Assembly: GCA_024679065.1 (NCBI GenBank)
Contig: JAGIQG010000002.1
Location: 36,580,001-36,644,000 of the forward strand
Direction of reading: 5' to 3'
From: Sphyrna mokarran
Lineage: Eukaryota
Length of the DNA stretch: 64,000 bases
The position numbers and the translations under genes were made by a program. Positions within the stretch are counted from its first letter, which is position 1. Every line of letters starts with the position of its first letter. This document shows, one piece after another, positions 4,684 through 61,589 of the stretch. Under the pieces are notes generated by a model that worked only from the letters and a program-made list of their open reading frames with translations, was not told where the DNA came from and made no database searches.

Positions 4684-5243
4684 ACTTTATAAGACCCTTC
4701 TCAGACCCCACTTGGAGTACTGTGTGCAGTTCTGGTCGCCTCACTATAAGAAGAATGTGGAAGCTATTGAGAGAGTGCAGACGAGATTTACAAAGATGTT
4801 GCCTGGTTTGGGAGGCATGTCTTATGAAGATAGGTTGAGGGAGCTAGGTCTCTTCTCCCTGGACAGATGAAGGTTGAGAGGTGACCTGATAGAGGTTTAT
4901 AAGATGTTGAGAGGAATAGATAGGGTGGATTCTTGGAGGCTATTTCCCAGGGCTGAAATGGTTGCTATGAGAGGACACAGGTTTAAGGTGCTTTGGGGGC
5001 AAGTACAGAGGAGATGTTAGAGGTAAGTTTTTCACTCAGAGGGTGGTGAGTGAATGGAATCGGCTGCTGTCAGTGGTGGTAGAGGCGAACTCACTGGGGT
5101 CTTTTAAGAGACTTCTGGATGAGTACATGGGATTTAATGGAATTGGGAGTTACAGATAGTTCTACGGCCTGGTAGGTACTGATATGATCAGCACAACTTG
5201 TGGGCCGAAGGGCCTGTTTGTGCTGTAGTGTTCTATGTTCTAT
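4684..5243 (+). mobile_element. CR1 LINE, right part of the element starting at 1300
   Basis: LYKTLLRPHLEYCVQFWSP continues the interrupted ORF2. Ends in GGGCCGAAGGGCCTG...TTCTATGTTCTAT. Confidence 0.92.
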
Positions 5244-5679
5244 CCCTATCAATTACAGTCCCCTCCCCTCCTCCAACCTTTGTAGGGTAAATCTCATCCT
5301 ATTTCCTTTCTTTAGCTTTGACAAAGTCTCATCCTGACTCGAAATGTTGGCTCTATTCTCTCTATAGCAGCTGTCAAACCTGTTGAGATTTACCAGCATT
5401 TTTTTAGTTTTGCTGCCTTGTGTCCAAATCCAGTGCTGACTGATCTTCTGGTTTTATACTTACTGTATCACACTGATTTACATAATGATGTTGGTACAGC
5501 TGAGTAGTTTGCATGGCCATTTCAGAGAAAAATTTGGAGCAGATAATTGTGGGTCTGGAGTCAAATAAATACCAGACTGGGTGAGGAAGGCAAGTTTCCT
5601 TTCATAAAGAATATCAGTACACTAGATAGATTTTAATCTAGCAGTTTCATGATCCTCTTGCTAACCAGTTCACTGATGC

Positions 5680-6560
5680 CAGGACTACTAAGTTCCACAC
5701 CTCATTTCAGTATTTGTTGAAACATGGACAAAAAAGATGAAGTCAGAGTTGAGGTGAGATTGATTGCTCTTGACATCGAAGCAATTTCTGACCAAGTGTG
5801 GTATTAAGGAGCTTGAATAAAATGTAACTCAATGGAATCATATGGAAAGCTGTCCACTGGCTGAAGCAATACTTAGCACAAAGAAAGATAGTTGTGGTTG
5901 TTAGAGGCTAATTATTTCAGCCCCAGGACATCAATGGAACAATTACAACAGCAGCTTAGGTATAACTATTACATCAAAGACCTTCCCTCCATAAAGTCAT
6001 AAATGTGATGCTTCTGATCATTTCATTGTCTTCAGTTCTATTCACAACTCCTCAAATAATGAAGTAGTCCCTGCACAATATTTAGGCTTGAGCTAACAAG
6101 TGGTAAGAAACATGAACTCCTGAAAAATGTCAGGCAATAATTATCTCTAACAAGAGTGTGATCACCTTAGCTTGACCTTTTTCAGCATTAGCATCACCAT
6201 TCCCCATCATCAACACTCTGAAATCACCATTGACCAGGTTAACTAAAGCTCTACACAATTACTGTGGCTTCAAAATCAATCATAGACTGGGTATATTTTG
6301 GACTGATAACAACGGTTTTCCACCATCTGCAAGGCGCAAGTCGCGAATGTGATGGGAATATTTGCCATTTCCACTACATTCAAGCCAAAGCAGCTCATTT
6401 GATTGGCATCCCATCCACCAATTAAAGCATTCACTTCTTCTACCACTGAGATACCATAGCTGCATTTTGTACGATCTACAAGGTACACAACACCAACTTG
6501 CGAAGACCTCTTCGGCAAATAAAAGGCATCTGTGGATGACTGTACTCCCAGCAAGAGGCA
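5680..6560 (+). mobile_element. Old degenerate non-LTR retrotransposon (CR1/L2 group) RT fragment
   Basis: Decayed LDIxAxxDxVW motif near 5770. Similar sequence occurs at 14250-15200 (+) and 62640-64000 (-). Boundaries approximate. Confidence 0.6.
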
Positions 6561-6693
6561 ATGAACCAATGTTCTGTTCTATCAGTTTCAATTTTCCCTG
6601 CTTTTAGTAATCAATTTTTGATGTTAGAAACAAGGCCAAAGAAATGGAAAGATTGGTTAAAAATAATCCCCCCAAATCAATTTTTAAAACAAT

Positions 6694-7373
6694 TAGAACA
6701 TAGAACATAGAACATAGAACAATACAGCACAGAACAGGCCCTTCGGCCTTCGATGTTGTGCCGACCAAAATAAAAGCAATGCCCCTCCTAACTAAACCAT
6801 TCCCTTCTCTTCCATATACTTATCAACTAACCTCTTAAACGCCACCAAACTTGGCGCATCTACAACAGCTGCAGGCAGGGCATTCCACTCCCTAATCACT
6901 CTTTGAGTAAAGAACCTACCTCTGATATCCGTCCTATAACTCATACCCCTTAATTTAAAGCTGTGTCCCCTCGTGCTAGCTTTCTCCATCCTAGGAAAAA
7001 GGCTATCACTGTCCACCCTATCTAAACCTCTAATCATCTTATATGCTTCAATAAGATCCCCTCTTAGCCGCCTCCTTTCTAACGAAAACAACCTCAAATC
7101 CTTCAACCTCTCTTCATAGGACCTGCCCTCCATACCAGGCAACATCCTGGTAAACCTCCTCTGTACCCTCTCCAATGCCTCCACATCTTTCTTATAATGT
7201 GGCGACCAGAACTGCACACAATACTCCAAGTGCGGCCGCACTAGAGTTTTGTACAGCTGCAACATGATGCTGCGGCTCCTAAATTCAATCCCCCTACCAA
7301 TAAAAGCTAAGACTCCATATGCCTTCTTAACAACTTTATCCACTTGACTGCCTACTTTCAGGGATCTATTGAC
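6694..7373 (-). mobile_element. Young CR1 3' fragment
   Basis: Uninterrupted 183-aa ORF2 C-terminus, nearly identical to 2445-3115. (TTCTATG)n tail; ACAAT TSD at 6689-6693 and 7374-7378. Confidence 0.93.
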
Positions 7374-8789
7374 ACAATGTTCCCTATTGGTCTAATAATT
7401 GACCAGCTTTATTTGTGTTTGGTCCATTTTGATAGATTTACATGCAGGATCCTATCATTAGCTGCCCTATAAGAGAATACTTAATAAATACAAAAAGAGT
7501 TAAACTGTCACCTTTAGTAACAGGAAGTATACAGTGCAATCTGTTTGATGTGACTTATTTTCGAGTCGTTAATTTATGCTGCACCTGTGTCATTCTTCTC
7601 CAGTTACATAATAGGGTCAAAGTTATGTGAACACAGCTGAAGGACATTTTTATTTAGAGATCAAAAGCTTTACAAATAATTGGCCTGCAATTAAAGAGTT
7701 TATTGATTTTGGAAAAATGTTCTTGGACCAGACAAAAGTCGACAGACCACAAAATTATTCCAAACAGATAGATCTATTTAACAAAGGTTATACTTAATAA
7801 ACAGGCTGCAATTAACAGACCATATGTGGTCTTTGTTTCCTGATGAAGTCTGAGCAGATACTGCCTTCTCTTTTATTCTCTTGTATTTTCCTTCTTCTGA
7901 TTTTCTCATCTTTGCCACTTCTTTATTTGAAAATACCATGATGGCCATTCTCAATCTCCCTGCACAATCTTCCTTATCATGTTTGATCAAGATAACCAAC
8001 TCCCAACATTCATATGATTAATATAATCATTGGCCTAGTCTATTCACAATTACGTCAGCAGGCCATTACACATAATTGTGACCATCTCCTGGATTACAAC
8101 AGACAAAGTTAGCATGCAGACATCTTAATAGGCTTATGTTGTTCTTCACAGTTGGGATTTTTTAACAATATAATCAGAGAAATGCAACCAACATAACCAT
8201 TTAAGTTTTCTTCCTGCCTCATTGTTAAACTAGACAGACTCATCATTCTCACCTGTTTTCATTTCTGTTCAATCTTCTTAAATTGTTCTAACATCTTATC
8301 TGCTGTTTCTATAAATGTCTAGATTCGTGCAATCTGCTATTCCTAATCATTGCGTGATTTTTTTTTTACTTATGCTTAGCTATCAATGCAAACAGCTCTT
8401 AACTCTGCTTTCCAAAAGCCCATACATTTACAATTCAGTACCTAAAATTGAGATAAAAGATATATAAAAACCCATATTTCTTAGAAGTTTTGTTCCTATT
8501 TGACTTTAAGTGAAAATGAGTATGTAATATTACCATATTTACCCTTTTCTGAACAAATTAATCCCAAATTATTTTGTCTCCTCTTTGTATATTTCTTATA
8601 CATTTTCTGATTTTCTTTTCTGTTCTTCAGATGGATTGCAGTGATGTAAGAACGTGACTCACCACCACCTTCTCAAAAGGCAATTATAATTGGGGAACAA
8701 AGTTGGCCTCGCCAATGATGAACGCATCCAAAAGTTTAAAACATCCTAACTTTCTCTGAATGTACGTTTAAAGGAAAGGACTGCATTGC

Positions 8790-9134
8790 CATTTACCTTT
8801 GATTTTATTTTTGTTCTTTTTATATGTATTTCCTGTTCCAAAACCTAATTGTTGTAATGCAGGGAAATATGGCAGCCAGTTTAAGCACAGCAAGGTATCA
8901 CAAACGTCAATGAGATGACCAGATAATCTGTTTTTTGTGATGTTGGTTAAGGAATCAATGGGCTCCTCTTCAGATAGTGCCATAGGAGCATTTATGTCTG
9001 CTTGATCAGCACAGAGCCTCAGGTTAATGTTTCAACAAAAAGATAGCATTCTTTTAGTAGTATACAGAAGTATCAACCTAGATTATACGCTCAAATCCCT
9101 AGGGTGGGACTTTGAAACAACAATCTTCTGATTT
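8790..9134 (-). mobile_element. Deu-domain (SacSINE1-like) SINE
   Basis: Reverse complement of the CAGATTATCTGGTCAT...TGCTGTGC...TGGCTGCC core also seen at 22240-22655 and 25790-26150. Confidence 0.6.
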
Positions 9135-9137
9135 ATA

Positions 9138-9263
9138 GGGTGGGATTTCCTGGCTGTGCTCAGCCTAAGACAGGAAAATTCCACCCAAGGTTAATGGACC
9201 TTTGCATGGTCATATGCCACCCACTGCGATTCCAGTGGCAGGTGGGATCGGAAAATTCCACCC
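9138..9263. mobile_element. 126-bp MITE, PIF/Harbinger-like
   Basis: TIRs GGGTGGGATTT / AAATTCCACCC, 3-bp TSD ATA (9135-9137, 9264-9266), and an extra internal TIR copy near 9174-9187. Confidence 0.75.
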
Positions 9264-9979
9264 ATAGAGTCCTCAGTGGTACAACTGAACCGAATATGAT
9301 GTCTTATGGCCTCATGCTGACCACTAAAAACTGTGGCCTTGTACAAATTTATCATTATCTCTTTACATTTGGACCCTAACTCCTTTATATAACCCAAAAT
9401 AACTGCTTTACAATTGTTTGCTAGCCCACAATTGCACTTTTTACATACCTCAACTTCCTCCACTCCATACCCCTTATCTATTTCTTTAAATGTAATCTTC
9501 TATTTCTTGTTTCAATTGCAAAACATATTTACTTCACATTCATTTAAAACAGTTTACATTTATCATTCTCCCGATTCTTCTAACCTGTTGCTGTCCTCCT
9601 TAAGACTCTTCCCTGCAGTTTGATGCATATTTATGTTATCAAATTAGGTGTGAAAAAAGTGGGACTTTGACTTTTAATACACACGTCAAACTTTTGGATT
9701 ACAAGTTTGCATAGAGTAGAATGTGGGTGAATGGCCAGGAGTGCATTGGAATAGTCTAGTCTGTAGATAATATAGATATAACTGAGAGTTTCAGCAACAG
9801 CAGGGCTGGGCAAAGTCAGGCATTGTTACAGTGGTGGAAACAGACGGTCTCAGTAAATAGGAGATTGGAATCTCATCTTGGAATCAGATTAGTTGTGAAT
9901 AGACTGGCTTAATCTCAAAACAGTTAGAAGAAAAAGGGGTGGAGTTGATAACCAGGGTATAAAGTTTGAAGGTCCAAAG

Positions 9980-11731
9980 CTTGACTTCAGTTATAGGTAA
10001 GCTAACGGAGAGGATCCTTAGGGACAGGATGTATGAGCATCTGGAGCGCTGCGATCTGATCAGGGATACGCAGCATGGCTTCGTCAAGGGGAAGTCTTGT
10101 CTTACAAATCTAGTGGAATTTTTTGAAGAAGTGACAAAAACAGTTGATGAAGGACAGGCTGTTGATGTCGTCTACATGGATTTCAGTAAGGCGTTTGACA
10201 AGGTTCCTCATGGTAGACTGATAGAGAAGGTGAAGGCGCATGGGATACAGGGTCGGGTATGTAGATGGGTCGAGAACTGGCTCGGGAGGAGGAGACAGAG
10301 GGTAGTAGTGGAAGGCTCTTTTTCCGGCTGGAAGCCTGTCACTAGTGGAGTGCCACAAGGCTCAGTACTAGGTCCTCTTCTATTTGTGGTCTACATAAAC
10401 GACTTGGAAGTAGGGGTAGGTGGTGAGATCAGCAAATTTGCTGATGACACCAAGATGCTTGGATTGGCGGGTACAGAGGAGCAGTGTCAGGCAATACAAC
10501 AGGACATAGATAGGTTGGTAGACTGGGCAGATAGATGGCAAATGGAATTTAATCCGGATAAATGCGAGGTGATGCATTTTGGCCGGAAAAATGTAGAAGA
10601 GAGTTATAGGATAAAAGGTAAAACTATACGGAGCATAGAGACGCAGAGAGACTTGGGGGTGCAGGTTCACAAGTCTCTGAAGGTGTCCTCACAGGTGGAG
10701 AAGGTGATAAAGAAGGCGTATAGTATGTTAGCTTTCATAGAAAAGGGTATAGAATACAAGAGTAGGAGTTTGATGTTGCAGTTGTATAGAACGTTGGTTA
10801 GGCCTCACTTGGAATACTGCGTCCAGTTCTGGTCGCCGTACTATCGGAAGGATGTGGAGTCCTTGGAGAGAGTGCAGAGGAGGTTTACCAGGATGCTGCC
10901 TGGTATGGAAGGACTGTCTTATGAGGAATGATTAAATAGACTGGGGTTGTTTTCCCTTGAAAGACGTCGGCTTAGAGGGGATCTCATAGAGGTGTATAAG
11001 ATTATAAGGGGTATAGATAGAGTAAATGGAGGTAAACTTTTTCCACCTTCAGAAATGGATAGGACGAGGGGTCATGGCCATAGGGTGAGGGGGGCTATGT
11101 ATAAGACGAATATTAGAGGGCAGTTTTTCACACAAAGGGTAGTGGGGGTGTGGAATGCACTGCCGAGTAAGGTGGTGGGAGCAGGCACACTGGGGCTGTT
11201 TAAGGGTCTCTTGGACAGCCACATGAGCGGTATGCAGATAGAGGGATATAGTAGGACTGTTTAACTACGGCTTTTTTTCCACAGGTAATTCGGTCCATAC
11301 TTGACCAACATTGAGCATGCATTCGGCAGGTGGTGCGAGTACAGCTCTTGGATGTTGATTCATGGGTTGCCTGGTACCTCATGTCGTAAATGAGTGCTTT
11401 ATGTGGACCATCTGAAGGGCACCATGACAGCTCAGAGACTATCGATGTGGCTGTGCAGACACTTGGAATTGGGCCGGTGTCTGCGGGAGTTTGCGCGTTC
11501 TCCCCGTGGTTGCGTGGGTTTTCTCCGGGCACTCTGGTTTCCTCCCACAACCCAAAAATTTGCTCTTAGGCTGATTGGGAAACAAATTGTCCCTATAGTG
11601 AGAGTCTTCCATATTAGGAATAACCTAAATCTTTAATAGGATAATGGATTTGCTACTATATAGTTATGACGGCGGCGTGGGCTCGTTGGGCCAAAGGGCC
11701 TGTTTCCCGTGCTGTGTTGCTCTAAAAAAAA
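9980..11731 (+). mobile_element. CR1 LINE of a second subfamily, 5'-truncated, with a long 3' region containing a V-SINE-like core
   Basis: ORF2 runs 9980-11264 with one internal stop at 10929-10931. CR1-type tail GGGCCAAAGGGCCTGTTTCC followed by an A run near 11690-11731. Confidence 0.88.
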
Positions 11732-11822
11732 ACAATTGGCTTCAATCTTTCCAATATTTAACAGCACTGTCTCTGTGGAGTGCACATTTTCTCCCCATGT
11801 CAACATGGGGTTCCTCCGGTTT

Positions 11823-12130
11823 CACAGAATCCTAAGTTGTGGAAGGAGGCCATTTGGCCCATCGAGTCTCAACAATCCCACCCAGGCCTTATCTCTTCAA
11901 GCCCAGGCATTTATCCTAGCTAATCCCCAACACTGAAGGGCACTTTGGTATGACCGATCCACCTAATCCTGCATATCTTTGTACTGTGGGAGGAAACTGG
12001 GGCACCCAGAGGAAATGCATGCCAATACAGTGAGAACATACAGACTCCTTACAGTGACCCAAGACAGAATTCGAAACTAGATCCCTGGCGCTGTGAGGCA
12101 GCAGTACTACCTACTCTGTTACCACATCGC
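11823..12130 (-). mobile_element. HE1-like V-SINE (tRNA head, CR1 tail)
   Basis: Reverse complement reads GTAGTACTGCTGCCTCACAGCGCCAGGGATCTAGTTTCGAATTC, then the V core, then GATGGGCCAAATGGCCTCCTTC. Confidence 0.8.
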
Positions 12131-12719
12131 TCCCAAAGATTTTTTTGTTTTTGCAGTTTTAGTTAGGGCATCGTGATCAGCATGGGCTTGGAGGGCCAAA
12201 TGTGATGCTGTTTTCAACTTAGATTCTTAATTCCAAGTATTTTTTTATTATTAATTCAAATTCCACCATTTGCCATTACCTGATTTGAACGCAAGTCCCC
12301 AAAACAATAGTTGAGTTTCTGGATTAATAGTCTAACAATAATACCAAGAGGTCATTGCCTCGGAGTACACTGCCACAGTCTGAAAGATGTGCTAGTTGGG
12401 TGCACTGGCCATCCTAAATTCACCCTGTGTAGCTGGATGGACGCCGAAGTATGGTGCCTAGGGGATTTTCACAGTAAATTCATTGCTGTGTTAATGTAAG
12501 CCTACTCGTGATACTAATAAATAAACTTTTAAAAAACTCATAACAATCAGATCAAGACATTAAACACCCATTACTAACTACATCACACCACCCGCACTCT
12601 AGGACCCATCAATGAAGCTTTTTCAGTGCCTGCTGAAACACATGGATTAAACAGAGGATTTAAGAGTAAATTCAGTTCGAAAAGATAGTATTAAAAAAAA
12701 CCGACATGTGGAACCGCTC

Positions 12720-12909
12720 TCATAACGGATGATTCAATCAATGTTGATAATGATTCCAGCTTCATGTTAGACACCTATTGGGATTGAACCGTTTGGCGGA
12801 GGACCTCAGCGGGATTTTGAAAACAGGAGCGCGCGACGTGAGGGGGTATCGGCGCTGGAGCGGCGCGGCCTGAGCGGGGGAATGGTCTCTGAGTTCCTTC
12901 AGTCGAAAG
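12720..12909 (+). promoter_or_regulatory. MASTL promoter/5' UTR in a small CpG-rich island with cell-cycle motifs
   Basis: Local CpG enrichment at about 12790-13070. Motifs: TAACGG (MYB-like) 12723-12728, ATTGG (reverse CCAAT) 12777-12781, TTTGGCGG (E2F-like) 12792-12799, TTTGAA (CHR) 12816-12821. All lie within 190 nt of the ATG. Confidence 0.6.
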
Positions 12910-13080
12910 ATGGAAGTTCCGAATCCTGCCGGCTTGTACAGCGATGTGAAGACGATCAAGGTGCCGGCAGCCCCTAGTATCGAGGACTTTGCTATCATCA
13001 AGCCCATCAGCCGCGGGGCTTTCGGCAAAGTGTACCTGGCTCGGAAGAAACATGATGAAAAGAAGCTGTACGCTGTCAAG
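12910..13080 (+). CDS. MASTL: MASTL/Greatwall kinase, coding exon 1
   Basis: MEVP...[23 protein letters not shown]...LYAVK: Greatwall-type Gly loop (SRGAFG) and the ATP-binding Lys. 171 nt, ending at AAG|gcaagc (GC donor). Confidence 0.95.
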
Positions 13081-13169
13081 GCAAGCACAGATGGATATGA
13101 TTTGGGGGGGGGGGTCGTCCAAACACCGGCTGTATCCTTAATCAAATCTAATTTGTGACATTTCAAGTC

Positions 13170-13430
13170 CCCTTGAATCCCAACTGTGCAGAAGAAGGCC
13201 ATTCAGCCCTTTGCGTCTGCACTGACCCTCCTGAAAGAGCACTTTATCTAGGTCTACTCCCCTGCCCTATCTCAGTGCGTTGATTACAGTCAATCCACCT
13301 AATTTGCACATCCTTGGACTGTGAGAGGAAACCCGTGATGTGGAGATGCCCGTGTTGGATTAGGGTAAACACAGTAAGCAGTCTCAGTAAGAAGTGAGAC
13401 TTCTTATGGAGGAAACCCATGCACACGTGA
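13170..13430 (-). mobile_element. V-SINE fragment
   Basis: Reverse V core (GGTTTCCTCTCACAGTCCAAGGATGTGC) with a CR1-type tail. Confidence 0.65.
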
Positions 13431-13457
13431 GATGATTATGCAGATTGTCAGCATAGA

Positions 13458-13730
13458 GGTGGCACAGTAGTTAGCACTGCTGCCTCACAATGCCAGAGAT
13501 TGGGATTCAATTCCCAGCTTGGGTGACTGTGTGGAGTTTGCACATTCTCCCCTTGTCTGCATAGGTTTCCTCTAGGGGGCTCCATTTTCCTGTCAGTCTG
13601 AAAGATGTGTGGGTTGAGTGGATTGGTATTGCTAAATTCTCCCTCAGGTGCTGGACCGTGGTGACTAGAGGATTTTCACAGTAACTTCATTGCAGTGTTA
13701 ATGTAAGTCTACTTGTGACACTAATAAACT
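13458..13730 (+). mobile_element. V-SINE with a non-CR1 tail
   Basis: A-box TGGCACAGTAG, B-box-like GATTCAATTCC, V core, and tail GGATTTTCACAGTAACTTC...GTGACACTAATAAA. The same tail is at 12462-12530. Confidence 0.8.
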
Positions 13731-14249
13731 TATTAAAACTGAGGACGACATTGAATTGGGTCCTTGAAGCAGCAATGCTAATAATTGTACTGCTGTCATG
13801 CCCCAATGATACCCTCATACGATGTTCATGGTTAAGTGTGTTCATGGGTATTTTTTCCATAACGTTTAGCCATGTCTGGACTGGTTGTCTGAGACTGGAG
13901 CAGAACCGGGATTGGGTAGATTCAGGTTTTACTTGGACTCATGATTTATTACAAACTTCCTTTATTTTTACTTCCCAGTTGGAAGTGGTTCTCAACTATG
14001 CTATTGAGCAGCTGTTACTGAGGAATAGCTGGCTTACTGATACTTAGTTTAGGTCCTTCCAGGTCTAGGGCCTCCAGACCTCATTATAGTCTTGGCTAAA
14101 ACATGAACTGAAGAGGTGAACTCGAGGTGGGAGTGACTGCCCTTGGCCTCAAGGAAACATTTTGGTCAAGTACGTCATCAAAGAGCCCTTTTTGAAGTTA
14201 ATGGGAGCGGGGGCATGTGGGTGACAACAATTTGAAGTCATGCCTAGCA

Positions 14250-15200
14250 TAAAAGGTGGTGGTTGTTGGAAATCAATTGTCTTAGCCCTAGAGCATTTCT
14301 GTATGAACTTCTTGGGTAGTGTAAGGCTTGACATTTTGACTTTCCCTCTGTCACAAGATTAGAATTTAAGTAGGAATGCTTGCTGATTTTGTGATATTTA
14401 TTGCCACACACAACTCCTCAGATATTGAAACTGTGTCCATTTGCAGCAAGACTGGCACCAACATTCAGGCTTGGACTAATAAGTGGCAAGTAAATTCCTG
14501 CCAGATAATGACCATCCCTGAAAAAAGAGAATCCAATCATCTACTATGGCATTCAATCACTTAAACTTCTCAACTACCAACATTGTGTGGGGTTACCATT
14601 GACTAGAAACTGAACTACTTGTAAATATTGTGGCTACAAAAGTAGTTAGTGGTTAGAACATAGAAACAGGCCCTTCGGCCCACAAGTTACACTGATCATA
14701 TCCCTACCTACCAGTTAGGAGTTACAATAATCCACCTCTTGACTCCCTGTCTACTATCAAAAAGACATGTTAGAAATGTGATGGAATATTCTCCACTTGC
14801 CTGAATAAATACAGCTCCAACAGCTGTATTTAATTGGAGTTTAATACCATCCAGCACAGAGCAACCCATTTGATATATACCACTTTGATATTTCTTTTAA
14901 GATTCACTGGAGCAATGCATCTTCATGACCATTACCACTTACAGGGGCAAGCAGATGCACAGGATCACACCAGTGTGAATTCACTTCCAAACCACGTATC
15001 ATCCTGACTTGAAACTATATCGCTATTTCTTTACTATAGCTGGGTCAAAATCTTAAGTCCCTCCCAAGTAGCATTGTGGGTGTGTCTATACCAGACAGAC
15101 AGCAGAGGTTCAAGAAGGTGGCTCACTATTCCTCCTCGAAGGCAATTAGGAATGGCAGTAAATGTTGGTCTAGTCACTGGCACCCATGTCTTCAAATGAG
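14250..15200 (+). mobile_element. Old CR1/L2-group LINE 3' region
   Basis: Decayed RT C-terminus and the tail GGTTCAAGAAGG...GGCAATTAGG...AAATG(C/T)TGG, also present at 62650-62740 (-). Confidence 0.55.
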
Positions 15201-15565
15201 GGATATTGAAAAGATGTTCCACAGGATTGTTAGGTAGTGATTCCTAGTTTCAGTTTAATTCTCCATGCTGCTAGCACTCTGATCCCTTGCCTACATTGTT
15301 CAATGTAAGTCCAAATAACACCTATGCTTTTGCTTGGACATGAGCCAAACTTGTGGGATTAAAGTTTTTGATCTTTTTTTAAATTCAAATTGCAGCTGTT
15401 GGTACTAATTCTGCTATTCCCTTTTGCACCTCCTCCATATACACGTTTACTTGTCCTGTTATCTTTCCCTTTTGCTTTGGCGCACTATATCTTTTGTTAT
15501 TCAATTTCTCCTGCTTTCCACCCTAGCACAAATTTTCCTTTTTTTTGTTGTTTTCTTCACTTTGC

Positions 15566-18500
15566 CTTATGATCCCAGCTGCGTTGTAACTGGATGGGAA
15601 GGTCCTGGGCTCAAATAGTAATTTTACTATTTTAGAAAATGTGAAGGAAGAGAGTCATAGGGCCACTAATTAGTCTTAACAACATGAAATAAATGTATTT
15701 AAACATGAAAAGTTGGATGGCGATACAATGCTCTTACCTCCCCTTCAGATTAACAAGTACACAGATTTTAAGATTAATGTTGATTACAAAGTATAGCTTA
15801 AGCTACGGTAGTCTTGGTACCACAAAGTCCTTTTAAACACCCAAACTGGTTTTAGCAAAACACATTTTTTGCTGTGAAACCAAGTGTCTGTGGATTTCTC
15901 TTTAGAATTCTGCCCAAATGATTTTTATACCTTGAACCATCTTGTCCAACTGAACTCCAGCTTCCACACGAATGATTTAAATTCTGCTTTCAAAAGGTAC
16001 ACTTCTTTTAAATAGCGCTTTCTTTTAGTGTCAATTAGAAACATAGAAAAACTACAGCACAAACAGGCCCTTCGGCCCACAAGTTGCGCCAAACATATTC
16101 CTACCTACTAGGCGTACCTATAACTCTTTATTTTACTAAGTTCCACGTACTTGTACAGAAGTCTCTTAAAAGACCCTATCGAATCGGCCTCCACCACCAC
16201 TGCTAGCAGCCGATTCCACGCACCCACCACCCTCTGAGTGAAAAACTTACGCCTGACATCTCCTCTGTACCTACTCCCCAGCACCCTAAACCTGTGTCCT
16301 CTTGTGACAACCTTTTTAGCCCTGGGAAGAAGTCTCTAAGAATCCACTCGATGAATATCTTATACACCTCTATCAGGTCACCCCTCATCCTTCGTCTCTC
16401 CAAGAAGAAAAGACTGAGCTCTCCCACCCTATCCTTATAAGGCATGCCACCCAATCCAGGCAACATCCTTCTAAATCTCCTCTGCACATTTTCAATGGCT
16501 TCCACATCCTTTCTGTAACGAGGTGACCAGAACTGAGCACAGTACTCCAAGTGGGCTCTGACCAGGGTCTTGTGCAGCTGCAACATTATCTCCTGACTCT
16601 TAAACTCAGTTCCTCGATTGATGAATGCCAGTACACCATATGCCTTCTTAACCACAGCCTCTACCTGCGAAAATGCTTTGAGTGTCCTATGAACTTGGAC
16701 CCCAAGATCCTTCTGCTAAGAGTCTTACCCTTAATATTATAATCTGCCATCCTTTTTGACCTGCTGAAATGAATCACCACACGCTTATCTGGGTTGAAGT
16801 CCATTTGCCACTTCTCTGCCCAGTTGTGCATCCTATCAATGTCTTGCTGCAATTCTGACATCCCTCCACACTATCCACAACATCTCCAACCTTTGTGTCA
16901 TCAGCAAACTTACCAACCCATCCCTCCACTCCCTCATCCAGGTCATTTATAAAAATCATAAAGAGCAAGGGCCCCAGAACAGATCCTTGCTGAAGTCCAT
17001 ATAAACCACAACTACTGCTCTTCCTTCGTCAATGTGTTTAGACACATTCTCAAAAAACTCAACCAGGCTCTTAAGGCATGATCTGCCTTTGACAAAGCTG
17101 TGCTGACTATTCTTGATCATACTACACCTCTCCAAATGTTCATAAATCCTGTCTCTCGGGGTCTTCTCCATCAAGGACTATCTTTTCTCCCTTTCTTGAA
17201 TAAAGGAACCACATCCACAATCCTTTGGAACTACTCCCCTTTCCGTTGATGATGCAAAGATCATTGCCAGAGGCTCAGCAATCTCTTCCCTCGTCTGCTG
17301 CAGTAATCTGGGGTATGTCCCATCTGGTCCCAGCGACTTATCTAACTTAATGCTTTTCAAAAGCTCCAATACACCCTCTTTCTTAATGTCTGCATACTCA
17401 AGCTTTTCAGTCCTGTAAGTCTGCACTACAACCACCAAGATCCTTTTTCACTGTAAACGCTGAAGTAAAATATTCATTTAGTACCTCCACAATTTCTACC
17501 GGTTCTATACAAACCTTCTCACCGTCACACTTGATATGTTCTATTCCTTCACGTCTTATCCTCTTGCTCTTCACATACTTGTAGAATGCCTTGGAGTTTT
17601 CCTTAATCCTACCTGCCAAGGCCTTCTCATGACTTCTTCTGGTTCTCCTAATTTCCTTCTTAAGTTCTTCTAGGTCTCTAGCATTACCTAGCTCTCTGAA
17701 CCTTTTGTAAGTTTTTCTTCTTGACTAAAGTCATTACAGCTTTCATGTACCACAGTTCCTTTAGCCTATCATAACTTCTCTGTCTCGTTGGAATGATGCT
17801 GTACAAAACTCCAGGCAAATATTCCTTGAAAATTTGCCATATTTCTTCTGTACATTTCCCTAAGAAAATCTCTTTTGAATTTATGCCTCTAATTTCCTGC
17901 CTGATAGCTTCATAATTCCTCTTACTCCAATTAAACACTTTTCCTAGTTTGTCTGATCCTATCTCTCTCTCTAATGCCAATGTAAAGGAGATAGAGTTAT
18001 GATCACTATCCCCAAAATGCTCTCCTACTGAAATCAGACGCCTGTCCAGGTTCATTTTTGAATACCAAATCAAGTACAACCTCTCCTCCTGTAGGCTTAT
18101 CCACATACTGTATCAGAAAACCTTTCTGAACGCACCTAATAAGCTCCTTCCCATCTAAACCTTTTGCCTTAAGGAGATTCCAATCGATACTTGGGAAATT
18201 AAAATCTCCCATCACAACAACTCTGTTATTATTACACCTTTCCAGGACCTGTTTCCCTATCTGCTCCTCAACATCCCAGTTATTATTGGGCAGTCTATAG
18301 AAAACATCCGGTAAAGTTAATGACCCTTTTTTCTGAACCTCTACGCACAGACACTCCATAGACAATCCCTCCATGGCGTCCATATTTTCTACAGCCGTGA
18401 CACTATCTCTGATCAACAGTGCCACTTCCCCACCTCTTTTTCCTCCTTTCCTTCTGAAACATTTGAAACCTGGCATTTTAAGTATCCAGTTCTGTCCTTG

Positions 18501-32575: not shown

Positions 32576-32645
32576 TTCTCTTATCTCTTGGACAATGCCA
32601 GCCTAGCACTGCCCATCAGGTAGCAAACATCATCCTGTCCTTAAC

Positions 32646-34623
32646 GAATTAAAGTTAATTCGCTGGTTAAAAGGAAAAAGGAGGCTTATGTCAGGATGAG
32701 GCTTGAAGGCTCAGTTAGTGTACTGGATAGCTATAGATTAGCCAGGAGGGAGCTAAAGAGTGTGTTGAGAAGAGCTAAAAGGGGACACGAGAAGACTTTG
32801 GCTGATAGGATCAAGGAGAATCCTAAAGCTTTCTTTAGATATGTTAAGAATAGAAGATTGGTTAGGGCAAGATTAGGGCCAGTCAGAGACAGCAGTGGGA
32901 AGTTGTGCGTGGAGCCTGAAGAGATTGGAGAGGCACTGAACAAATATTTTTCTTCGGTATTCACGCAGGGAGATGTAAATGTAGTTGTGGAGAACACTGG
33001 GATACAGGGTTGCAAACTGGAAAGTACTGAAGTAGATAAGGAGGATGTGCTAGATATTCTTGAGGGTTTGAAGTTAGATAAGTCCCCTGGGCTGGACAGG
33101 ATTTACCCTAGGATTCTCTGGGAGGCGAGAAAGGCAATTGCAGAGCCTCTGGCTCTGATCTTCAGGTCGTCGTTCATTACAGGTATAGTGCCGGAAGACT
33201 GGAGGATAGTGAATGTGGTCCCATTGTTCAAGAAAGGGAATAGAGACTTTCCTGGGAATTATAGACCGGTGAGTCTTACTTCTGTTGTGGGCAAAGTATT
33301 GGAAAGAATTATTAAGGATAGGATTTATAGTTATTTAGAGAGAAACGAATTGATTGGGGATAGTCAGCATGGTTTTGTGAAGGGTAGGTCGTGCCTTACT
33401 AACCTTATTGAGTTTTTTGAAAAAGTGACCAAAGAGATGGATGGGGGTAAGGCAGTTGATGTGGTATATATGGACTTTAGTAAGGCGTTCGATAAGGTGC
33501 CCCATGGAAGGCTTCTGCAGAAAATGCAGATGTATGGGATTGAGGGTGATTTAGCTAATTGGATTAGGAATCCATTATCCATGATAGAAGACAGAGGGTG
33601 GTGGTTGATGGAAATTATTCATCATGGAGTTCGGTTACAAGTGGTGTACCTCAGGAATCTGTTTTGGGGTCCCTGCTGTTTGTAATTTTTATAAATGATC
33701 TGGATGAGGGTATTGAAGGATGGATTAGAAAATTTGAGGATGACACCGAAGTCTGAGGAGTGGTAGATAGTGAAGAGGGGTGTTCTAGTTTGCAGAGAGA
33801 CTTAGACAAGTTGCAGAGCTGGGCCGAGAGGTGGCAGATGGAGTTTAATGCGGAAAAGTGTGAGGTAATTCACTTTGGCAGGAATAACAAATGTGTAGAG
33901 TATAGGGCTAATGGTAGGACTCTTAATAGTGTTGAAGAACAGAGGGATCTTGGTGTATATGTGCATAGATCCCTGAAAGTTGGCAATCAAGTCGATAAGG
34001 TTGTTAAGAAGGCATATGGAGTCTTAGCTTTTATTGGTAGGGGGATTGAATTTCGGAGCCGCAACGTCATGTTGCAACTGTACAAAACTCTAGTGCGGCC
34101 GCACTTGGAGTATTGTGTGCAGTTCTGGTCCCCACATTATAAGAAAGATGTGGAGGCATTGGAGAGGGTACAGAGGAGGTTTACCAGGATGTTGCCTGGT
34201 ATGGAGGGCAGGTCTTATGAAGAGAGGCTGAGGGATTTGAGGTTGTTTTCGTTAGAAAGAAGGCGGCTAAGAGGAGACCTTATTGAAACATATAAGATGA
34301 TTAGAGGTTTAGATAGGGTGGACAGTGATAGCCTTTTCCCTAGGATGGAGAAAGCTAGCACGAGGGGACATAGCTTTAAATTAAGGGGTGGTAGTTATAG
34401 GACGGATGTCAGAGGTAGGTTCTTTACCCAGAGGGTGGTAAGGGTATGGAATGCCTGCCTGCTGCAGTTGTAGATGCGCCAAGTTTGGTGGCGTTTAAGA
34501 GGTTAGTAGATAAGTTTATGGATGAAAAGGGAATGGTTTAGGTTAGAGGGTCATTGCTTTTTCCAAATTGGTCGGCGCAACATCGAAGGCCGAAGGGCCT
34601 GTTCTGCACTGTAATGTTCTATG
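32646..34623 (+). mobile_element. CR1 LINE, 5'-truncated, same family as 2445-4683
   Basis: 329-aa and 237-aa ORF2 pieces, TTCTATG tail, and TTAAC TSD at 32641-32645 and 34624-34628. Confidence 0.93.
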
Positions 34624-35850
34624 TTAACCTCTCAGGGGGGCCTCAGTGGCTCCCCTTGATGGGGACCCCTCCCTGTGGAGGAGGGAGAGACACTAGTGAG
34701 CCTAGAGAATACTGTCCTGGGCTCACAAATCATATTGAAATATGAATTTCAATGTGGTAATCAGGCTTGCGCCGATTTCTGACATAAGGCTGGTAACATT
34801 GAAAAACGTTGCCTGGGAAACTTGCAATCGGCTGGACACAGATTCCTGCTGTGCAGTACACTCTAGAGCCAACTACAGAGCAGGCTATTCTGAAGGAGAA
34901 TTGTTCCCCAAAATATCTCTTCAGCACTTGCGCGGGCAGACACGTGCATGCTCATGCATTTTCTTTCACATATGCTCACAGAACTGTATACTTCTGTTTT
35001 TAATTGGATATATCTTTAACTTTCTTAGCTAGCCACAGATGGTGCATTTGAATCCTCACCGAAGTGCTGCTTTGAACATTCTGAAATATTTCCTCAACTG
35101 TCTGTTACTGCGTCTCTACTGACCTGTTCCTTAACTTATTTTCCGAGTTCACTTTAGCCAGTTCTGTCTTCGTGCCTTTTTGTAGTTTCCTTTAAGTCTT
35201 AAAACACTAACCTTAGAACCACTTTTCCTTCACCTGATTAAATTTCGCACTTAGTTTATGATCACTGCAACTTAAAGGCTCCTTTTACTATGAGATCATT
35301 AATTAATCTTACCTTATTGCACTAGATATTCTGTACCAGGTATAGAATAGCCTTATCTATAATTGGCTCGATGGTGTGCTCCCCTAAAAGATTATTCCAA
35401 AAATGCTCTGTAAATTGATATCCCTGGCTACCTTTGATCTGATTCATCCAATATATACGTAAATTTAAATTACCCATGAAGGTATGAAATTCACTTCCAG
35501 GATTAGCAGTAAATGTTTAAGATTTTTTGGATAGGTGTTTTATATTTCACTGAATTACTATAGCTAAGTATAAATGAATAGAAAATGTGAATTGCATTTA
35601 CTGCTTTAGCATTTGATTGCAAGTATGTGTGAGCCACTCAATCAGTTGTAAATTCTGTCTGTTTTGACTGAATTATAGACCTCAGAACTGTTGCAAAATT
35701 TAACCAGCACTTATTAAGAAGTGATTTTACTCTTTTTTTAAGCTGTCAATTGATATCAGTTCTTACAAAAGTTAAGAATTTATGCCCTAATATGTATAGG
35801 TTTTCTCTTCTGTAGCATTAAGTGCTTATGCATTTTGACTTTCTATTTAG

Positions 35851-51624: not shown

Positions 51625-51871
51625 TAGTAGGTTCGAGAACTTCAAGTTCTTGGGTGAACAGATCACCAATAACCTGTTCTGGTTTCCCCACCCACTCTCA
51701 TGCTGCCACAATAATTAAGAAAGCCCACCAACACCTCTAATTTCTCAGAGGATTAAGGAAATTTGGCATGTCAGTTATGACTCTCACCAACTTGTACAGG
51801 TGCACCATAGAAAGCATTCTTCCTGGTTGTATCACAGCTTGGTATGGTTCATGCTATGCCCGAGATGCAAG
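51625..51871 (+). mobile_element. Rex1/Babar LINE 3' fragment, left part
   Basis: FKFLG...KKAHQHLxFLRGLRKFGMS...LYRCTIESILPGCITAWYG. Confidence 0.8.
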
Positions 51872-52488
51872 TGTTGTAGGTAAAGATACTTCTGAAACTA
51901 ATTGTGAATCAAAGTACAGCAAGTATTTTCAAAAGCTTCTAGGAGGTACATCTGGTACCCAACAGCAGTTCCCCAGGCGTCTCCCTGAACACAAATTAAG
52001 AGTGTGTAAATATGTTTCCCAGTTACGTGTGCATCTTCTCGGTCTCAGCAATTTCCCAGGCTGTGGGTTGTCCTCCATCGTGGAAACATGACCATCTTGG
52101 CATTTCTTCATGATTATCTCAGGGCCGCAATAGATGTGTGTGATTAGCCCTTAGCTAACATACAGGCCAACAAGACAAATTAAAATTAATGGGATAATAT
52201 GCTTATAGATGACAAGCAATACATAACAAGTATATATTTAGGACACACAAGCTTCAGTATGTTAGGCAAAAGTCCACAAACATAAATACAAACTGGGTCA
52301 GCTACACTTCTGAATGGACAATCATAAGCTTGTGTACAACAGCAAGAACAGCTACAGCCTCTCTGGGCATACGAAAACAAATTTTGCATCTATCTGAGGT
52401 ACATGAAAACAAGCTACGTGTAAGTTGCATATTTTTTTTTTTTATTCTCCCAAGTATTACAAAGTTCATTCACCCATTCGCTACTACA
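51872..52488 (-). repeat. 3' LTR (617 bp)
   Basis: TG...CA termini; diverged direct repeat of 56951-57637. Confidence 0.9.
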
Positions 52489-52549: not shown

Positions 52550-53520
52550 TTACTGGCATAAGGGCCTAACTCCTTTGTGAAGCGATCCCTGTATACTTAT
52601 GCCCAATATGACTTGGGCTGTTAGTGTTTTACAATAGATGTTGAATAATGTCATACAAACAAAGTAAGCAATAACAATTACAATTAATCCATGTATCAGG
52701 TAGGAACCCCACGATCCAAACCATTGCCCCAGCCAGCCTGGAGGGTTATTATGATCTTCATTCCCTTCATCTTGTATTGTCTTTGCTACTTGTTTGATAT
52801 GATCTGCCAAGTGAGTTGTGTTCTCTGAAGCATCTGGAATATACATACGATATTTGGAGCTAACTATAGCACATGTTCCTCCTTGGGAGGCTAGCACATA
52901 AACAAAAGCCAATCGGTTCTATAAGACAACGGTCTGGAGAGCTACAACATCCACTGATATCTGAGATGGCTGTACTTACCTCCTTGAACCCATCTTGAGT
53001 CTCATTCTCTCTAGGGTTGAGCCCATAAGTATAAGTTCTTCGCTGCCTTTGCTATCCTGTAGAATGGGTATGCTAGCCTGAGGAATTGCTCTGTTCCACT
53101 AATGGCTCACTTGATCTTGAGCAAGTGTATCTTGGGATGGTTTCGTAAGTCGGAGATAACATGATTCTGAGCAGTCGCACGAAAGCCAAGGATAGGTATT
53201 GTTTCCACAGACAAAATAGGTGCCATTATAGCTAGGCTGGAAATAGGGCCAAGGTCGTAAGAAACAGCAGGAGAATCATTGTATCACTTAATTATAATCC
53301 ACTGTTATACAATGGTCCAAAGGTCTGCACGCAACCTCCTGTGAACCCAGTCGCCCGCGCTGACACGCAATTTCACATGAACCCAAATCTTTCACGCACA
53401 ACATCCCACTTGGAGGTCAGTTGACACTGTGAATTGAGCACATTACATATTGTCAATTGGTGCTGGCATACTTTATCAATTGAGTCCAGTGTTTCCAGAC
53501 TCTTCTGCCTTGCAGATCTA
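52550..53520 (-). pseudogene. Retroviral env remnant with gamma-type TM
   Basis: GTYFVCGNNTYPW (SU), LQTVVL*NRLAFVYVLASQGGTCA (immunosuppressive domain), decayed CX6CC...YIPD, WLGQWFGSW and a hydrophobic anchor. Confidence 0.8.
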
Positions 53521-56635: not shown

Positions 56636-56950
56636 TCTTCCTTCTACTCCGGCGATCAGTCAGACAGATTCTTTCTTACATCTGAACATCACACCCATTT
56701 CTGCAGGCTTCACACCCATTTCAAAATCCTGACCTTCACGTGGGGAGCTACCCCTCTTAACAACCGAAGACTGGGTATAAAGACAGATGCCTCCTTGTCC
56801 GTACGTGTTCAGATCAGACCTCTTTCTCTCTCACCCTTTCACCACAGATGAGCACCTTCTGTGCATACTGTACTTTGACCCACTCCCTTAAGTTCGATGA
56901 ACTATTCCAAAGCTCCAGGATTCAAACAGATCCTGGGTTTCTGCACCAAT

Positions 56951-57637
56951 TGTTGTAGGTAAGGATATCTCTGAGACTAATTGTGAATCCAAGTACAGCA
57001 AATTTATTCAAAAGCTTTTGGGAGATACACCTGGTACCCAACAGCAGTTCCCCAGGCGTCTCCTGGAACACAACTTAAGAGCATATATTTATACCCCCCC
57101 CCCCAGTTACATGTGCATCTTCCCAGTCTCAGCAGTTTCCCAAGCTGTGAGTTGCCCTCCATCGTGGGAACATGGCTACCTTGGCATTTCTTCATGGTTG
57201 TCTCAGAACTGCAATTGACTTGTGTGATTAGCCCTTAGCTAACATACAGGCTGACAAGACAAGTTAAAATTAATGGGAATGGTGTAACAATCTATGTTAA
57301 GTTGCATAGCATGTAATATGTATAATATGTTGGTACATGATACATAAGCAGTACGTAACAAATATATATTTAGGACTTGCAAGCTTCAGTATGTTAGGTG
57401 AAAGTCCGTGAAATTAAAGTTACAAACAGAAATACAAGCTGGGTTAGCTATATTTCTGAATGGACTATCGTAAGCTTGTGTACAACAGCAAGAGCAGCTA
57501 CAGCATCTCTGTCTGGGTACACGAAAATAAATTTTGCATCTATCTGAGGTACATGAAAACAAACGGCATGTAAGTTGCACAATTTTTTTTTCATTTTCCC
57601 AAGTACTATAACGTTCATTAACCCATTCGCTACTGTA
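56951..57637 (-). repeat. 5' LTR (687 bp)
   Basis: Abuts the PBS. Minus-strand TATAAATA near 57085-57092 and AATAAA at 57003-57008. The outer TG is mutated. Confidence 0.88.
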
Positions 57638-58052: not shown

Positions 58053-58965
58053 TATCAAGGATTAGATCTTTTCAAATTGTCTTAGGATTATCTTAGAGTC
58101 TTTTCCTTCCTTTGTCTGGAAGCTTAACCACTCAAATTTTTCGATGGGTCTGTGAGGTTTAATAGGGTAAATGTTTGTACCTTCTTCAACTTGACAATGC
58201 AGTACTGCAATAAAAACACCATTCTTTCTGAAACTTTCCAAAACTTTGAGCAAAATTTTCTTTAAGGACTAATAAGTTGATGTGGTGAAGTCCTCGTGCC
58301 ACACTGTTGTGTATTCCTTAAATCACCGACATCAAGGACTTCCAAAGTAGTTTGTAGCTGTTGGCCTAGCAATATACAGCACCAAGATCCCAAAGAAACT
58401 CCCATGATCCCTCCACCATGACTTCTTTTGTTGTCATGTTATCACTTGGTCTACAAGTGAGAATTTCGAGCCTGCATCCACTCCAGCCTTGATCATAGCA
58501 GCTGACTAAATTGATATCACTTTTTTTTTTGTTGTCTTCCACTGCCGTTCCATCTTTTGTAAAGAAGGACTTTTTGATATCCATTCTGTTTGACGTTCAA
58601 AACTTGAACCCATGCATGCACTTTGTCCTTTGTCGTAGTTTAACTTCAAAGTGAATGTTGCCGATCCACTTTTTCTACACCCATTCTTAGTCTTCTAACT
58701 TTGTGAAATACTGTCAAGTGACAACCATGCAAGGCTGAAAAACTAATATTTATCCCTCCCATCCTTTTGTATCACTGACCATTGGAAATCGGTTTTAATG
58801 GTTCACTGTGTCTTGGTGAGAATAAATTGTTTTAATCTTGTAATTAAAATGTGCAGGCATCTAAAGTGTAGTAGTGGTTTTCTTTCCAAATATTGCAATT
58901 TTTGTGATCTGTTAACATGGGAGGATATTCATCATACTTATCTTGAATGTTTTTTACACATTCAG

Positions 58966-59104
58966 ACACCACTGCTGGCTACTGTGCGAACTCCTTATAG
59001 AACGCCGAAAAGTGTGCGGAGAGGTCCGGCTCCAACTGAAGGAGAGAGAATTCTGGGAACACCGGATTACTTGGCCCCTGAGTTACTCTTGAGAATGCCA
59101 CATG
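58966..59104 (+). CDS. MASTL: MASTL coding exon 9; gene continues beyond the window
   Basis: attcag|ACA...CAT G|gtaaga; 139 nt; [34 protein letters not shown]. No DWW (subdomain IX) exon was seen before 64000. Confidence 0.96.
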
Positions 59105-60719
59105 GTAAGAGAAACCACCATTATAGCAGCTTAATAAATGTATTTGATGAACAGAAAGTGTTGGAAATAACAAGCAAATCTGTCAGTATTTGTAGGGAAA
59201 AGGTGAGTTGATGTTTCAGGTGCAGACCTTTCCTCCAAGCTGAGAACTGAGGTAACCAAATCCTTCAGTTGAGTGGAAATTGAGTGAGTCAAGTTTTGAG
59301 AATTAAACCTCTTTCCCAATAGCCTCATCACTTCGGAATTGATAAATCATTTGTGCCCTTCATTTGATCTGTTACTTTTGCAGGCTCCCTAATGTGGCAT
59401 AAACATTTTGAATTTTTCTTTTTCTTGTTTCGTGGGTTGTGGGGATGTGGGCGTCCACATTACTGTGGCTCGGGAATCACATTCATTCAGATTATGTAAG
59501 AATGACAGATTTCCAGCCCTAAAGAGCATTAGTGAACCAGATTGATTGTCATAAAAATCTATGATAGTTTCATAGTCACCATTGCTGAAACTAGCTTTTA
59601 ATTCCAGATTTTAATTCTATCTGACATGATACAACCATGTCCCCAGAACATTGACTTGGGCCTCTGAATTATTAGTCCCATCGTATGCTCCAATCATATT
59701 CCTCCATGTAAATACATAGCTTGAATTTATCCACAATGAAAGATGTATGCCACATTCTACAAACCATTGATTTAGCCTTAATTGCTCACCATGTGCAATA
59801 CCATCTTGTATTCTGCAGGCTGGTTATCTTCATTAATAAAGATTATTACAAAAATCGTCCAACCACTAAGCCCATAGAATTTTGTGCTTGCTCTGGCACC
59901 TTAAGTCTGTTTTAATATTGACAACTGCCCACTTTGTATAAAATAGCAACCAGTTACCAAACCACTGTCATATCAACCTGTATCATATACTTCAATATTT
60001 CACATTCACATTGTCCCTTTTACATAAGTAATTTCCCAAGCCAGTGTTAGGAAAACTGACATCATGCCAAAAAGTGTGACCAAAAATTTGCATGAATAGA
60101 TTGATGTTGAGAAGAATTTTAAGAGAGAAAAAGAAATCTTAGGGAAATTCAGAGTTGGACTTAGGCAGTTGAAAGATTTACCACTGACAGCGGATCAGAG
60201 GATTGGGGTATTCATTGCAAGACCAGAATCTGAGGATTAGTGTTTTCAGGACAGGGTCTATAGGGTTGAAGGCAACTACAAAGTTAAGTGAGGATTATGG
60301 ATGGGTTTAAAAACAACAACAACAACAAGGATTTAAAATTTGATCTGGGGATAGAGGGTGCCACTTTAGGTCACTGAGGACAAGGATGATGGGAAAGGGT
60401 AGGGCAGGATATGTTTCTGCAGGAGTTGGGCATGTGTAATTTACATTATATACAATAAAGAAATGACTCAAGCCAGGGGAATCTTGGCAGTAATAAAATC
60501 TGGAAGTCTAAAAGATTTAACAACTGACAGACATGAAGTTAAATTCTTGAAACCAGTTATCATTTAGGGAAATAAAATTATTTGGACTAAGCATGGATTA
60601 GAGTATTTAAGCAAGCTGCTTTATTTAACTACGTCTATATACTAGGTGCCAAGCTCTGATTATACATGTACTATTTTTAAATTTAAAAATTTCCTATTTC
60701 AAACTTTAGGTTGTGAAGT

Positions 60720-60759
60720 ATCGCTTCTCGGCCTTTTGGCTAAGATCAAGTGTAGTATC
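60720..60759 (+). pseudogene. RNU2: U2 snRNA 5' fragment (nt 1-40)
   Basis: ATCGCTTCTCGGCCTTTTGGCTAAGATCAAGTGTAGTATC is identical to the vertebrate U2 5' end. Similarity stops after nt 40. Confidence 0.92.
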
Positions 60760-61029
60760 AATATACTGTGCTTGGTTGAAGTCATTAGGTTACGTTTTAG
60801 CTTCACTTGAAGCAATTTTTAAAAGCGGCCTCTTGGCCTTTTGGCTAAGATGCAAATGAGATCAAGCCTTGGAGGCGGAGCTAATGCCTACTCCAATCAG
60901 CTTGGATCATGTAGATCAAGCCCAAGACAGGAGGTGAGAGCCCTGTCTTGTCAGCTTGGATCGGGAATGTCTCAACTTGTTGAGACTCTGAATTGAATTG
61001 GACTTGATTTGATTGAATTGGAATAAAAA
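60720..61029 (+). mobile_element. Candidate U2-headed SINE-like or chimeric retroelement
   Basis: U2 head, structured body, second U2-like motif at 60828-60851, (GAATT/GATTT)n tail, then AATAAAAAC. Confidence 0.55.
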
Positions 61030-61589
61030 CAAAGTTCTACAATATGGTAAGATTGTTGCAATCTAAGCACTTTTATTATTGCAAGTGGCAGTAAGTAGAG
61101 TAGGTGCAAAATTAGAATCAGTTAAGTGATGCATGTTCTAGGGTTTATTAGCTGTGGTGCTTTGCCTCAATGGAACATGTTAAAGTCAGATTACTTATGT
61201 TTCAATTAAAAGATTCGAGGTGTGAAATTTTGCTGCAATATATCCTGTCCCATTGGAATTGGCAAAGTTGCTTAGTAGTCACCTATTTTAACTTGAACTA
61301 ACAAGGTGATAGTATTATAAATTATAGCATACAAGTTAATTTTCTTTCACTAATTTTGGCAAAATACTTAGATTTTTCTCAAACCTTTTTATATCGTTGC
61401 ATGTAACTCTTTATTTAAATTGTCAATCATAGGATCTAAAATTGCTTAATGTTCGTACTTTATCTTTTAAACTTTAAGATGCATTCAATGCTTCGATAGT
61501 TTAAAGGCAGTGGTAATAAAAAGCTCCTCAAATGGCAGGGCTGGCTTCATTATCTCTCTAACCTCAGTGCTCAGTGTTCCTTGCACTCA

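Follow-up and report, generated by a model that had tools for sequence, protein, structure and literature searches.

A dispersed U2 snRNA-headed SINE family in the shark Sphyrna mokarran, proposed to be copied by a Keno-like Tx1 LINE and transcribed from source copies inside U2 genes

The window is the whole stretch of DNA analysed here, 64,000 nucleotides of Sphyrna mokarran (assembly GCA_024679065.1, contig JAGIQG010000002.1, positions 36,580,001 to 36,644,000 of the forward strand). It includes the ninth coding exon of MASTL/greatwall and, 3' of that exon, a complete copy of a short interspersed element (SINE) headed by the 5' end of the U2 snRNA. The features of the locus are as follows.

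58963..59106, plus strand: ninth coding exon of MASTL/greatwall, the host context (protein matches)
60716..60719, plus strand: possible 4-bp target-site duplication (TSD), partner at 61032-61035, not above chance
60720..61032, plus strand: whole SINE copy, 313 nt, of the youngest age class and 2% off that class's column majority
60720..60759, plus strand: head, U2 snRNA nt 1-40 (stem I, U6-pairing segments, branch-point recognition sequence), from identity to the genome's own U2 gene and an Rfam match
60763..60791, plus strand: antisense copy of U2 11-39, predicted to form a long hairpin covering the head (alignment, predicted fold)
60828..60851, plus strand: second copy of U2 nt 4-27 (stem I), 22/24 identical, stem I fold predicted to be retained
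60850..60857, plus strand: octamer motif ATGCAAAT, the same as at -208 of the genome's U1 genes (chance ~1.5%)
60860..60908, plus strand: module 1, GATCAAGC...TCAGCTTGGATC predicted stem with inner hairpin (sequence, predicted fold)
60914..60962, plus strand: module 2, a second GATCAAGC...TCAGCTTGGATC predicted stem with inner hairpin (sequence, predicted fold)
60969..60986, plus strand: terminal palindromic hairpin (predicted fold, self-comparison)
60988..61032, plus strand: pentamer repeats, AATAAA (61022-61027) and a short A-rich tail (sequence)

Placement in MASTL intron 9, proposed by the sequence-only reading, agrees with the sense orientation of the element and its position 3' of the ninth coding exon. 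The label holds because coding exons are counted, the next MASTL exon being absent from the 64-kb window. The best matches of the MASTL exons are sharks, with 88% to Mustelus asterias. The same reading had the element begin at U2 nt 1 and follow U2 for 40 nt, and positions 60720-60759 are indeed identical at 40/40 sites to nt 1-40 of the genome's own U2 gene. The Rfam U2 match starting at 60720 scores 54.8 bits, above the gathering cut-off. The GAATT/GATTT repeats plus AATAAAAAC are present at 60988-61030, and a local TSD is at most AAGT (60716-60719 and 61032-61035), both as first read. U2 upstream sequence was not found in the flank of this copy. Its 2% divergence from the young-class majority is the lowest of 65 young copies, which is partly a sampling effect because many copies were picked by likeness to it.

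Other repeats are present in the window. Many decayed LINE fragments, presumably CR1-like, occupy 1250-18500 and 32600-34625; two of them, 3' pieces at 2443-3117 and 6701-7376, are 97% identical to each other. Another repeat is present in two copies (51868-52485 and 56947-57634; 77% identity) and has a short open frame (52550-52918, minus strand) that resembles an envelope C-terminus by eye.

After nt 40 the sequence switches to a distinct body, as had been claimed. The description of this body as ~270 nt of non-U2 sequence stands only in part, since an antisense copy of U2 11-39 and a second copy of U2 4-27 lie inside it. Judged from its sequence, the body is largely built from recycled U2 5' pieces. 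The antisense arm (60763-60791) is identical to the complement of U2 11-39 at 17/29 positions, and 8 of the 12 differences are A>G or C>T changes, by which G-U pairing is retained. In the middle age class the arm is nearer to the perfect U2 complement than in the MASTL-intron copy. One way to explain the A>G and C>T bias would be RNA editing that retrotransposition then fixed.

The strong self-complementarity noticed at the outset is confirmed, as the predicted folding energy of the 310-nt stretch is -111 kcal/mol (z = -4.96), equalled by 0/100 shuffles. The young and middle classes have 69/96 predicted base pairs in common, and 7/20 changes between them preserve pairs, compared to 44% under neutral decay. 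As pair retention is no higher than neutral decay, the fold is a prediction only and selection on it is without support. The element lacks a canonical Sm site, which in the true U2 gene reads GATTTTTGG, and an Rfam search of the body for a known RNA family or ribozyme gave two sub-threshold matches only. Four internal T4-5 runs argue against Pol III transcription.

The element is almost certainly one copy of a dispersed, non-coding, U2-headed shark SINE family, which upholds one of the two alternatives offered by the sequence-only reading. The body, which had been suspected of belonging to a repeat, proved to be multi-copy, with 3342 first-look candidates in the genome, the best 40 of which were scored at 91-100%. 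A tail-only search gave 1989 candidates. The exact 20-base pattern spanning the head-body junction has 800 genome matches, compared to 0 for the reversed control. The U2 head is normally joined to the body, with 23/28 distinct tail-selected copies aligning from head nt 30 or earlier; in two of the other five the alignment begins at nt 34 and 41, and in the last three the truncation lies within the body. Since 13/58 sampled copies match the junction pattern, extrapolation from the 800 matches gives ~3,600 copies, based on a sample that is biased toward well-preserved copies; the overall copy number is put at roughly 3,000-3,600. The sample was brought from 60 to 58 by dropping the duplicates L031 and L049.

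The copies fall into at least three age classes: young (65 copies, mean 6% from the majority), middle (22 copies, 11%), with a head that reaches to about nt 37, and an older type represented by 3 copies. Family copies carry poly(A) tails. In the longest copies (12/58) the alignment starts at U2 nt 1-2, and L002, L071, and L152 have extra U2 pieces 5' of the head. Alignment of the flanks for TSDs yielded a score of at least 10 in 14/89 copies, compared to 0.8% of mismatched (shuffled) pairs, and exact matches of 8 or more in 9/58 copies, compared to 2.2% in the control. TSDs of 8-15 bp are found in a minority of copies. The flanks of the 58 copies are unrelated apart from common repeats and reveal no common target. 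Half or more of the element's words are present in 11 public runs (5 studies, four organism labels), one of which may be the source sample, runs with a small share of the words being disregarded, and none of the 24 public runs listed was an RNA run holding these words.

A subset of copies interrupts U2 itself. From the 39 matches of a junction search, 30 were inspected. In 11/30 the SINE and its A-run are followed by U2, which resumes at nt 38-40 (7 loci) or nt 42-46 (4 loci). The tie to a U2-targeting retrotransposon raised by the sequence-only reading is therefore upheld for these copies, which sit at the Keno/Utopia site of U2. Their 3' flank is TCTGTTCTTATCAG, the Keno target as quoted in the relevant passage of PMC6136364, and its start matches the U2 boundary at nt 39 given in PMC4640811. 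All three age classes are represented and different U2 variants are interrupted, and the insertions thus look like repeated events. Some of these copies could be retrotransposed read-through RNAs and not fresh insertions. U2 follows the SINE in 0/58 copies picked for the likeness of their body or tail, and in 0/27 old-set copies, so targeting of U2 is weak.

The true U2 array consists of four 8-kb units on contig C949. A diverged unit ~39 kb beyond it (G000:C949:17389776-17390255) is colinear with the array on both sides over several kb. It contains, in order, U2 4-37, a whole SINE body of the middle class, an A-run, U2 40-191, and the 3' flank.

The array units (C949:17.324-17.394 Mb, L131-L142) also carry a dead Tx1 3' fragment ~2.5 kb behind each gene. 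U2 46-191 still comes after this fragment in the diverged unit, pointing to an old insertion of Keno type that was amplified along with the U2 array. L128, L176, and L179 represent a divergent U2 variant with common changes around the Sm site and stem III. A set of U2 retrocopies (L117, L118, L121, L122, L166, L170) has 30-40 nt of common 3' sequence past the mature end, which would fit copying of a precursor RNA.

The U2 proximal upstream motif is found at 8 loci in the genome. Copies with U2 upstream sequence, suggested early on as potential sources, exist at two of these eight: the diverged C949 unit, with a whole body at the site, and a paralog at C557:766.5 kb, with 8 nt of it. The paralog consists of U2 1-40 and the first 8 body bases followed by a Tx1 fragment, and its upstream inserted repeat is common with the C949 unit. 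We take this repeat to be a tRNA-type SINE; ARAGORN found no tRNA in it. The C949 copy has decayed to 12.6% from its class majority, has lost ~10 bp before +1 and is interrupted ~75 bp upstream by the insertion of another repeat, and the C557 head differs from U2 at 8/40 sites, compared to 9.5% in young copies. Both loci could be dead-end targets and not producers of copies. No intact SINE source gene was found in the assembly, which fits a family without near-identical copies among the best 40 matches of 3342. As a U1-derived PSE matrix failed to pick out the U2 PSE, the term promoter rests here on homology and position relative to the upstream DNA of true U2 genes. On balance, these arrangements lean towards a U2 promoter driving the SINE source copies.

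The partner of the SINE was found through two copies lying directly behind the poly(A) of another repeat. Tracing that repeat led to a 5.3-kb LINE with a ZCCHC3-type ORF1, an apurinic-type endonuclease (APE), a reverse transcriptase (RT), and a weak zf-RVT domain, the Pfam matches to zf-RVT and Exo_endo_phos_2 being below cut-off. Its homologues are from amphibians and fish, and no named Keno sequence is among the 23 matches. We take the LINE to belong to the Tx1 clade, which its architecture and homologues fit. A U2 head running to nt 47-58 is present at the start of 3/7 long copies. The other four (L104-L107) form a second subfamily with, by eye, a U2 33-54-like stretch near the 5' end and no nt-1 head.

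SINE and LINE are repeatedly found side by side. A Tx1 tail lies ≤110 nt upstream of the SINE in 2/58 young and 4/27 old-set copies, compared to 0/300 control stretches, and a SINE lies ≤90 nt behind the Tx1 tail at 4/18 unseeded Tx1-tail loci. In the tandem arrays L064 and L071, LINE and SINE units are separated by one repeated 14-bp TSD. Tx1 tails are followed by U2 38-60 at three loci (L075, L184, L187). The LINE falls short of strict U2 specificity, with U2 following at 1/20 Tx1-tail loci. As the SINE body has no significant similarity to the Tx1 UTRs, the partner is assigned by target, TSD, and adjacency only. These suggest that the SINE is very probably mobilised by a Keno-like Tx1 LINE.

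Several loci are chimeric. At L177:1875-2160, U2 1-57 is fused to a 5'-truncated Tx1 tail, and at L075, L184, and L187 the U2 38-60 segment lies between two tails in chimeras with 5'-truncated Tx1 tails. L069 carries a SINE fragment fused 5' of a truncated Tx1. The U6-L1 chimeras of mammals are a parallel to the U2-Tx1 retrocopies.

The crocodilian families SINEU-1, -2, and -3 (Kojima 2015, PMC4494074) are, in the passages that describe them, also short retroposons with an snRNA-derived head, poly(A), and internal oligo-T. The same passages describe U2 pieces recurrently added at the 5' end, occasional TSDs of ~10 bp, copies in tandem around a TSD, and a Tx1 partner with its own snRNA head, and they report no LINE with the same 3' half. 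The shark family has the features of this class, being ~310 nt (<500 bp) and non-coding with a 3' poly(A), a U2 head, 5' U2 additions, and internal oligo-T. It is a replicating unit, with 800 exact junctions, three classes, and a body not common with Tx1, and not a sum of chimeric retrocopies. Mobilisation by Tx1 would be a further common feature, as judged from target, head, and adjacency. Kojima 2015 reports none outside crocodilians, whereas the host here is a shark. The paper gives Mariner-N4_AMi as the preferred site and no promoter source, while the shark SINE uses U2 itself at nt 38/39 and has copies behind U2 upstream DNA. The antisense copy of the head within the shark body also differs from SINEU as described there. 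The shark family is consequently not placed in any of the named crocodilian families. In the passages of PMC4758252, PMC5786205, and PMC5381603 that mention SINEU, it appears solely by citation of Kojima 2015. Among the mostly open-access articles listed by literature searches, none was on a shark snRNA-headed SINE.

Keno is a U2-specific Tx1-clade element which, in the passages devoted to it in PMC4494074, PMC4640811, and PMC6136364, has the same 3' target, TCTGTTCTTATCAG. The shark partner LINE likewise has a Tx1-type ORF1 and an APE-RT ORF2 and at some loci U2 from nt 38 comes directly after it, giving a 3' junction at U2 nt 38/39. In contrast to Keno, the shark SINE is non-coding, and both SINE and LINE lie mostly outside U2 with weak specificity. 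Utopia (Kojima and Jurka 2015, PMC4640811) uses the same U2 site and has reptile families that are also weakly specific, but the account of it given there has a restriction-like endonuclease where the shark partner has an apurinic-type enzyme. The R2 SIDEs of Drosophila, as outlined in PMC3414825, are likewise non-autonomous and insert in the host RNA gene used by their LINE, which is co-transcribed from that gene. Their parts are element ends and a ribozyme, and they insert in 28S genes, whereas the shark body does not derive from the tested LINE, has no Rfam ribozyme match, and is dispersed to thousands of sites. SacSINE1 and CmiSINE are shark and chimaera SINEs from the same host group, but combine tRNA heads with CORE or Deu domains and L2 tails, as described in PMC5499810. 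Two other classifications were tried and rejected. A U2 snRNA variant gene would have an Sm site, 3' stems, and an upstream snRNA promoter, which the element lacks, and a SIDE would take both its 5' and its 3' end from the partner LINE, which the element does not.

It is proposed, as a probable though by no means secure reading, that this dispersed SINE is copied by a Keno-like Tx1 LINE and transcribed from source copies at nt 37-40 inside U2 genes. The Tx1 endonuclease would nick U2 DNA before nt 39 and the SINE would be reverse-transcribed into the site. Insertion within a U2 gene would then place U2 1-38/40 and the body under an external Pol II snRNA promoter. The resulting RNA would end at the AATAAA/poly(A) of the body and be bound by Tx1 proteins, with most landings occurring at unrelated sites, such as the MASTL intron, as promoterless, decaying copies. 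Rare returns into U2 genes would renew the source pool. The antisense arm would mask the U6- and branch-point-pairing bases of the head and, with the Sm site missing, the SINE RNA would be expected to stay outside the spliceosome. A fuller version of the proposal, for and against which the case is about evenly balanced, is that a promoterless SINE survives by homing into U2 nt 38/39 via a Keno-like endonuclease, the head being both target scar and promoter mark, masked by the antisense arm.

The same family and Tx1 partner could also be explained without transcription from U2 genes. The head may have been fixed once by template switching to U2 RNA, with flanking promoters in host introns or Tx1 arrays transcribing the copies and the U2-embedded copies being dead-end by-products. 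Template switching is active, as seen in L002, L071, and L152, where further U2 pieces stand 5' of the head, in the fusion of U2 1-57 to a Tx1 tail in L177, and in the SINE fragment 5' of a truncated Tx1 in L069. Both promoter-bearing copies (C949, C557) are decayed, and flank-driven transcription is proposed for crocodilian SINEU in Kojima 2015 (PMC4494074). However, bar common repeats, the 58 copies have no common 5' extension from a non-U2 flank, the longest align from U2 nt 1-2 (12/58), and the end of the head, at nt 37-40, coincides with the target site. This explanation, the main rival of the preferred one, is considered rather unlikely.

The sequence-only reading had also offered descent from a U2-targeting LINE, in which case the SINE would be a SIDE-like internal-deletion derivative with a body taken from the LINE 5' or 3' UTR. 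The U2 head and target common to SINE and Tx1, the GATCAAAGCC..GGCTTGGAT motif after the head in three Tx1 copies, and the ending of some SINE copies in AATAAAGT, as in the LINE, would all be consistent with such an origin. Nevertheless, alignments of the body to the Tx1 5' UTR (4 copies) and of tail to tail (2 copies) score within the range of 100 shuffles. Moreover, 0/28 tail-selected copies run upstream into the LINE instead of head and body, and the body is largely recycled U2 5' pieces. Such a derivation is improbable, and this part of the early reading is not supported.

A functional U2-like or anti-U2 RNA gene at the MASTL-intron locus, the former also suggested early on, is highly improbable. 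The Rfam U2 score above the gathering cut-off, the strong predicted fold, and the 2% divergence from the class majority would suit such a gene, but the U2 match is limited to nt 1-40, the Sm site is missing, the flank contains no U2 upstream sequence, and the genome holds thousands of decaying copies.

In Drosophila, the HeT-A element has a 3' promoter that drives the next tandem copy. An equivalent snRNA-type promoter (octamer and PSE) in the 3' half of the SINE would fit the tandem arrays and the perfect octamer at nt 131 in 25/28 body-selected and 14/27 old-set copies (chance 1.5%), ~200 nt before the next copy as at -208 in U1 genes, but is very remote given that the octamer is absent from the oldest class and overlaps a predicted stem, and that the element's best score on the U1-derived PSE matrix, which misses the U2 PSE, is no better than shuffles (p = 0.47).

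The family matters beyond this locus. U2-headed SINE copies pass the Rfam U2 cut-off and can inflate U2 annotations in shark genomes. The shark family would represent a second vertebrate lineage with snRNA-headed SINEs. With named loci in which the body lies inside a U2 gene behind U2 upstream DNA, where a known class of U2-targeting LINEs cleaves, the transcription of snRNA-headed SINEs is now a testable question. If true, the homing model would explain both the transcription and the origin of these SINEs, in a lineage independent of crocodilians.
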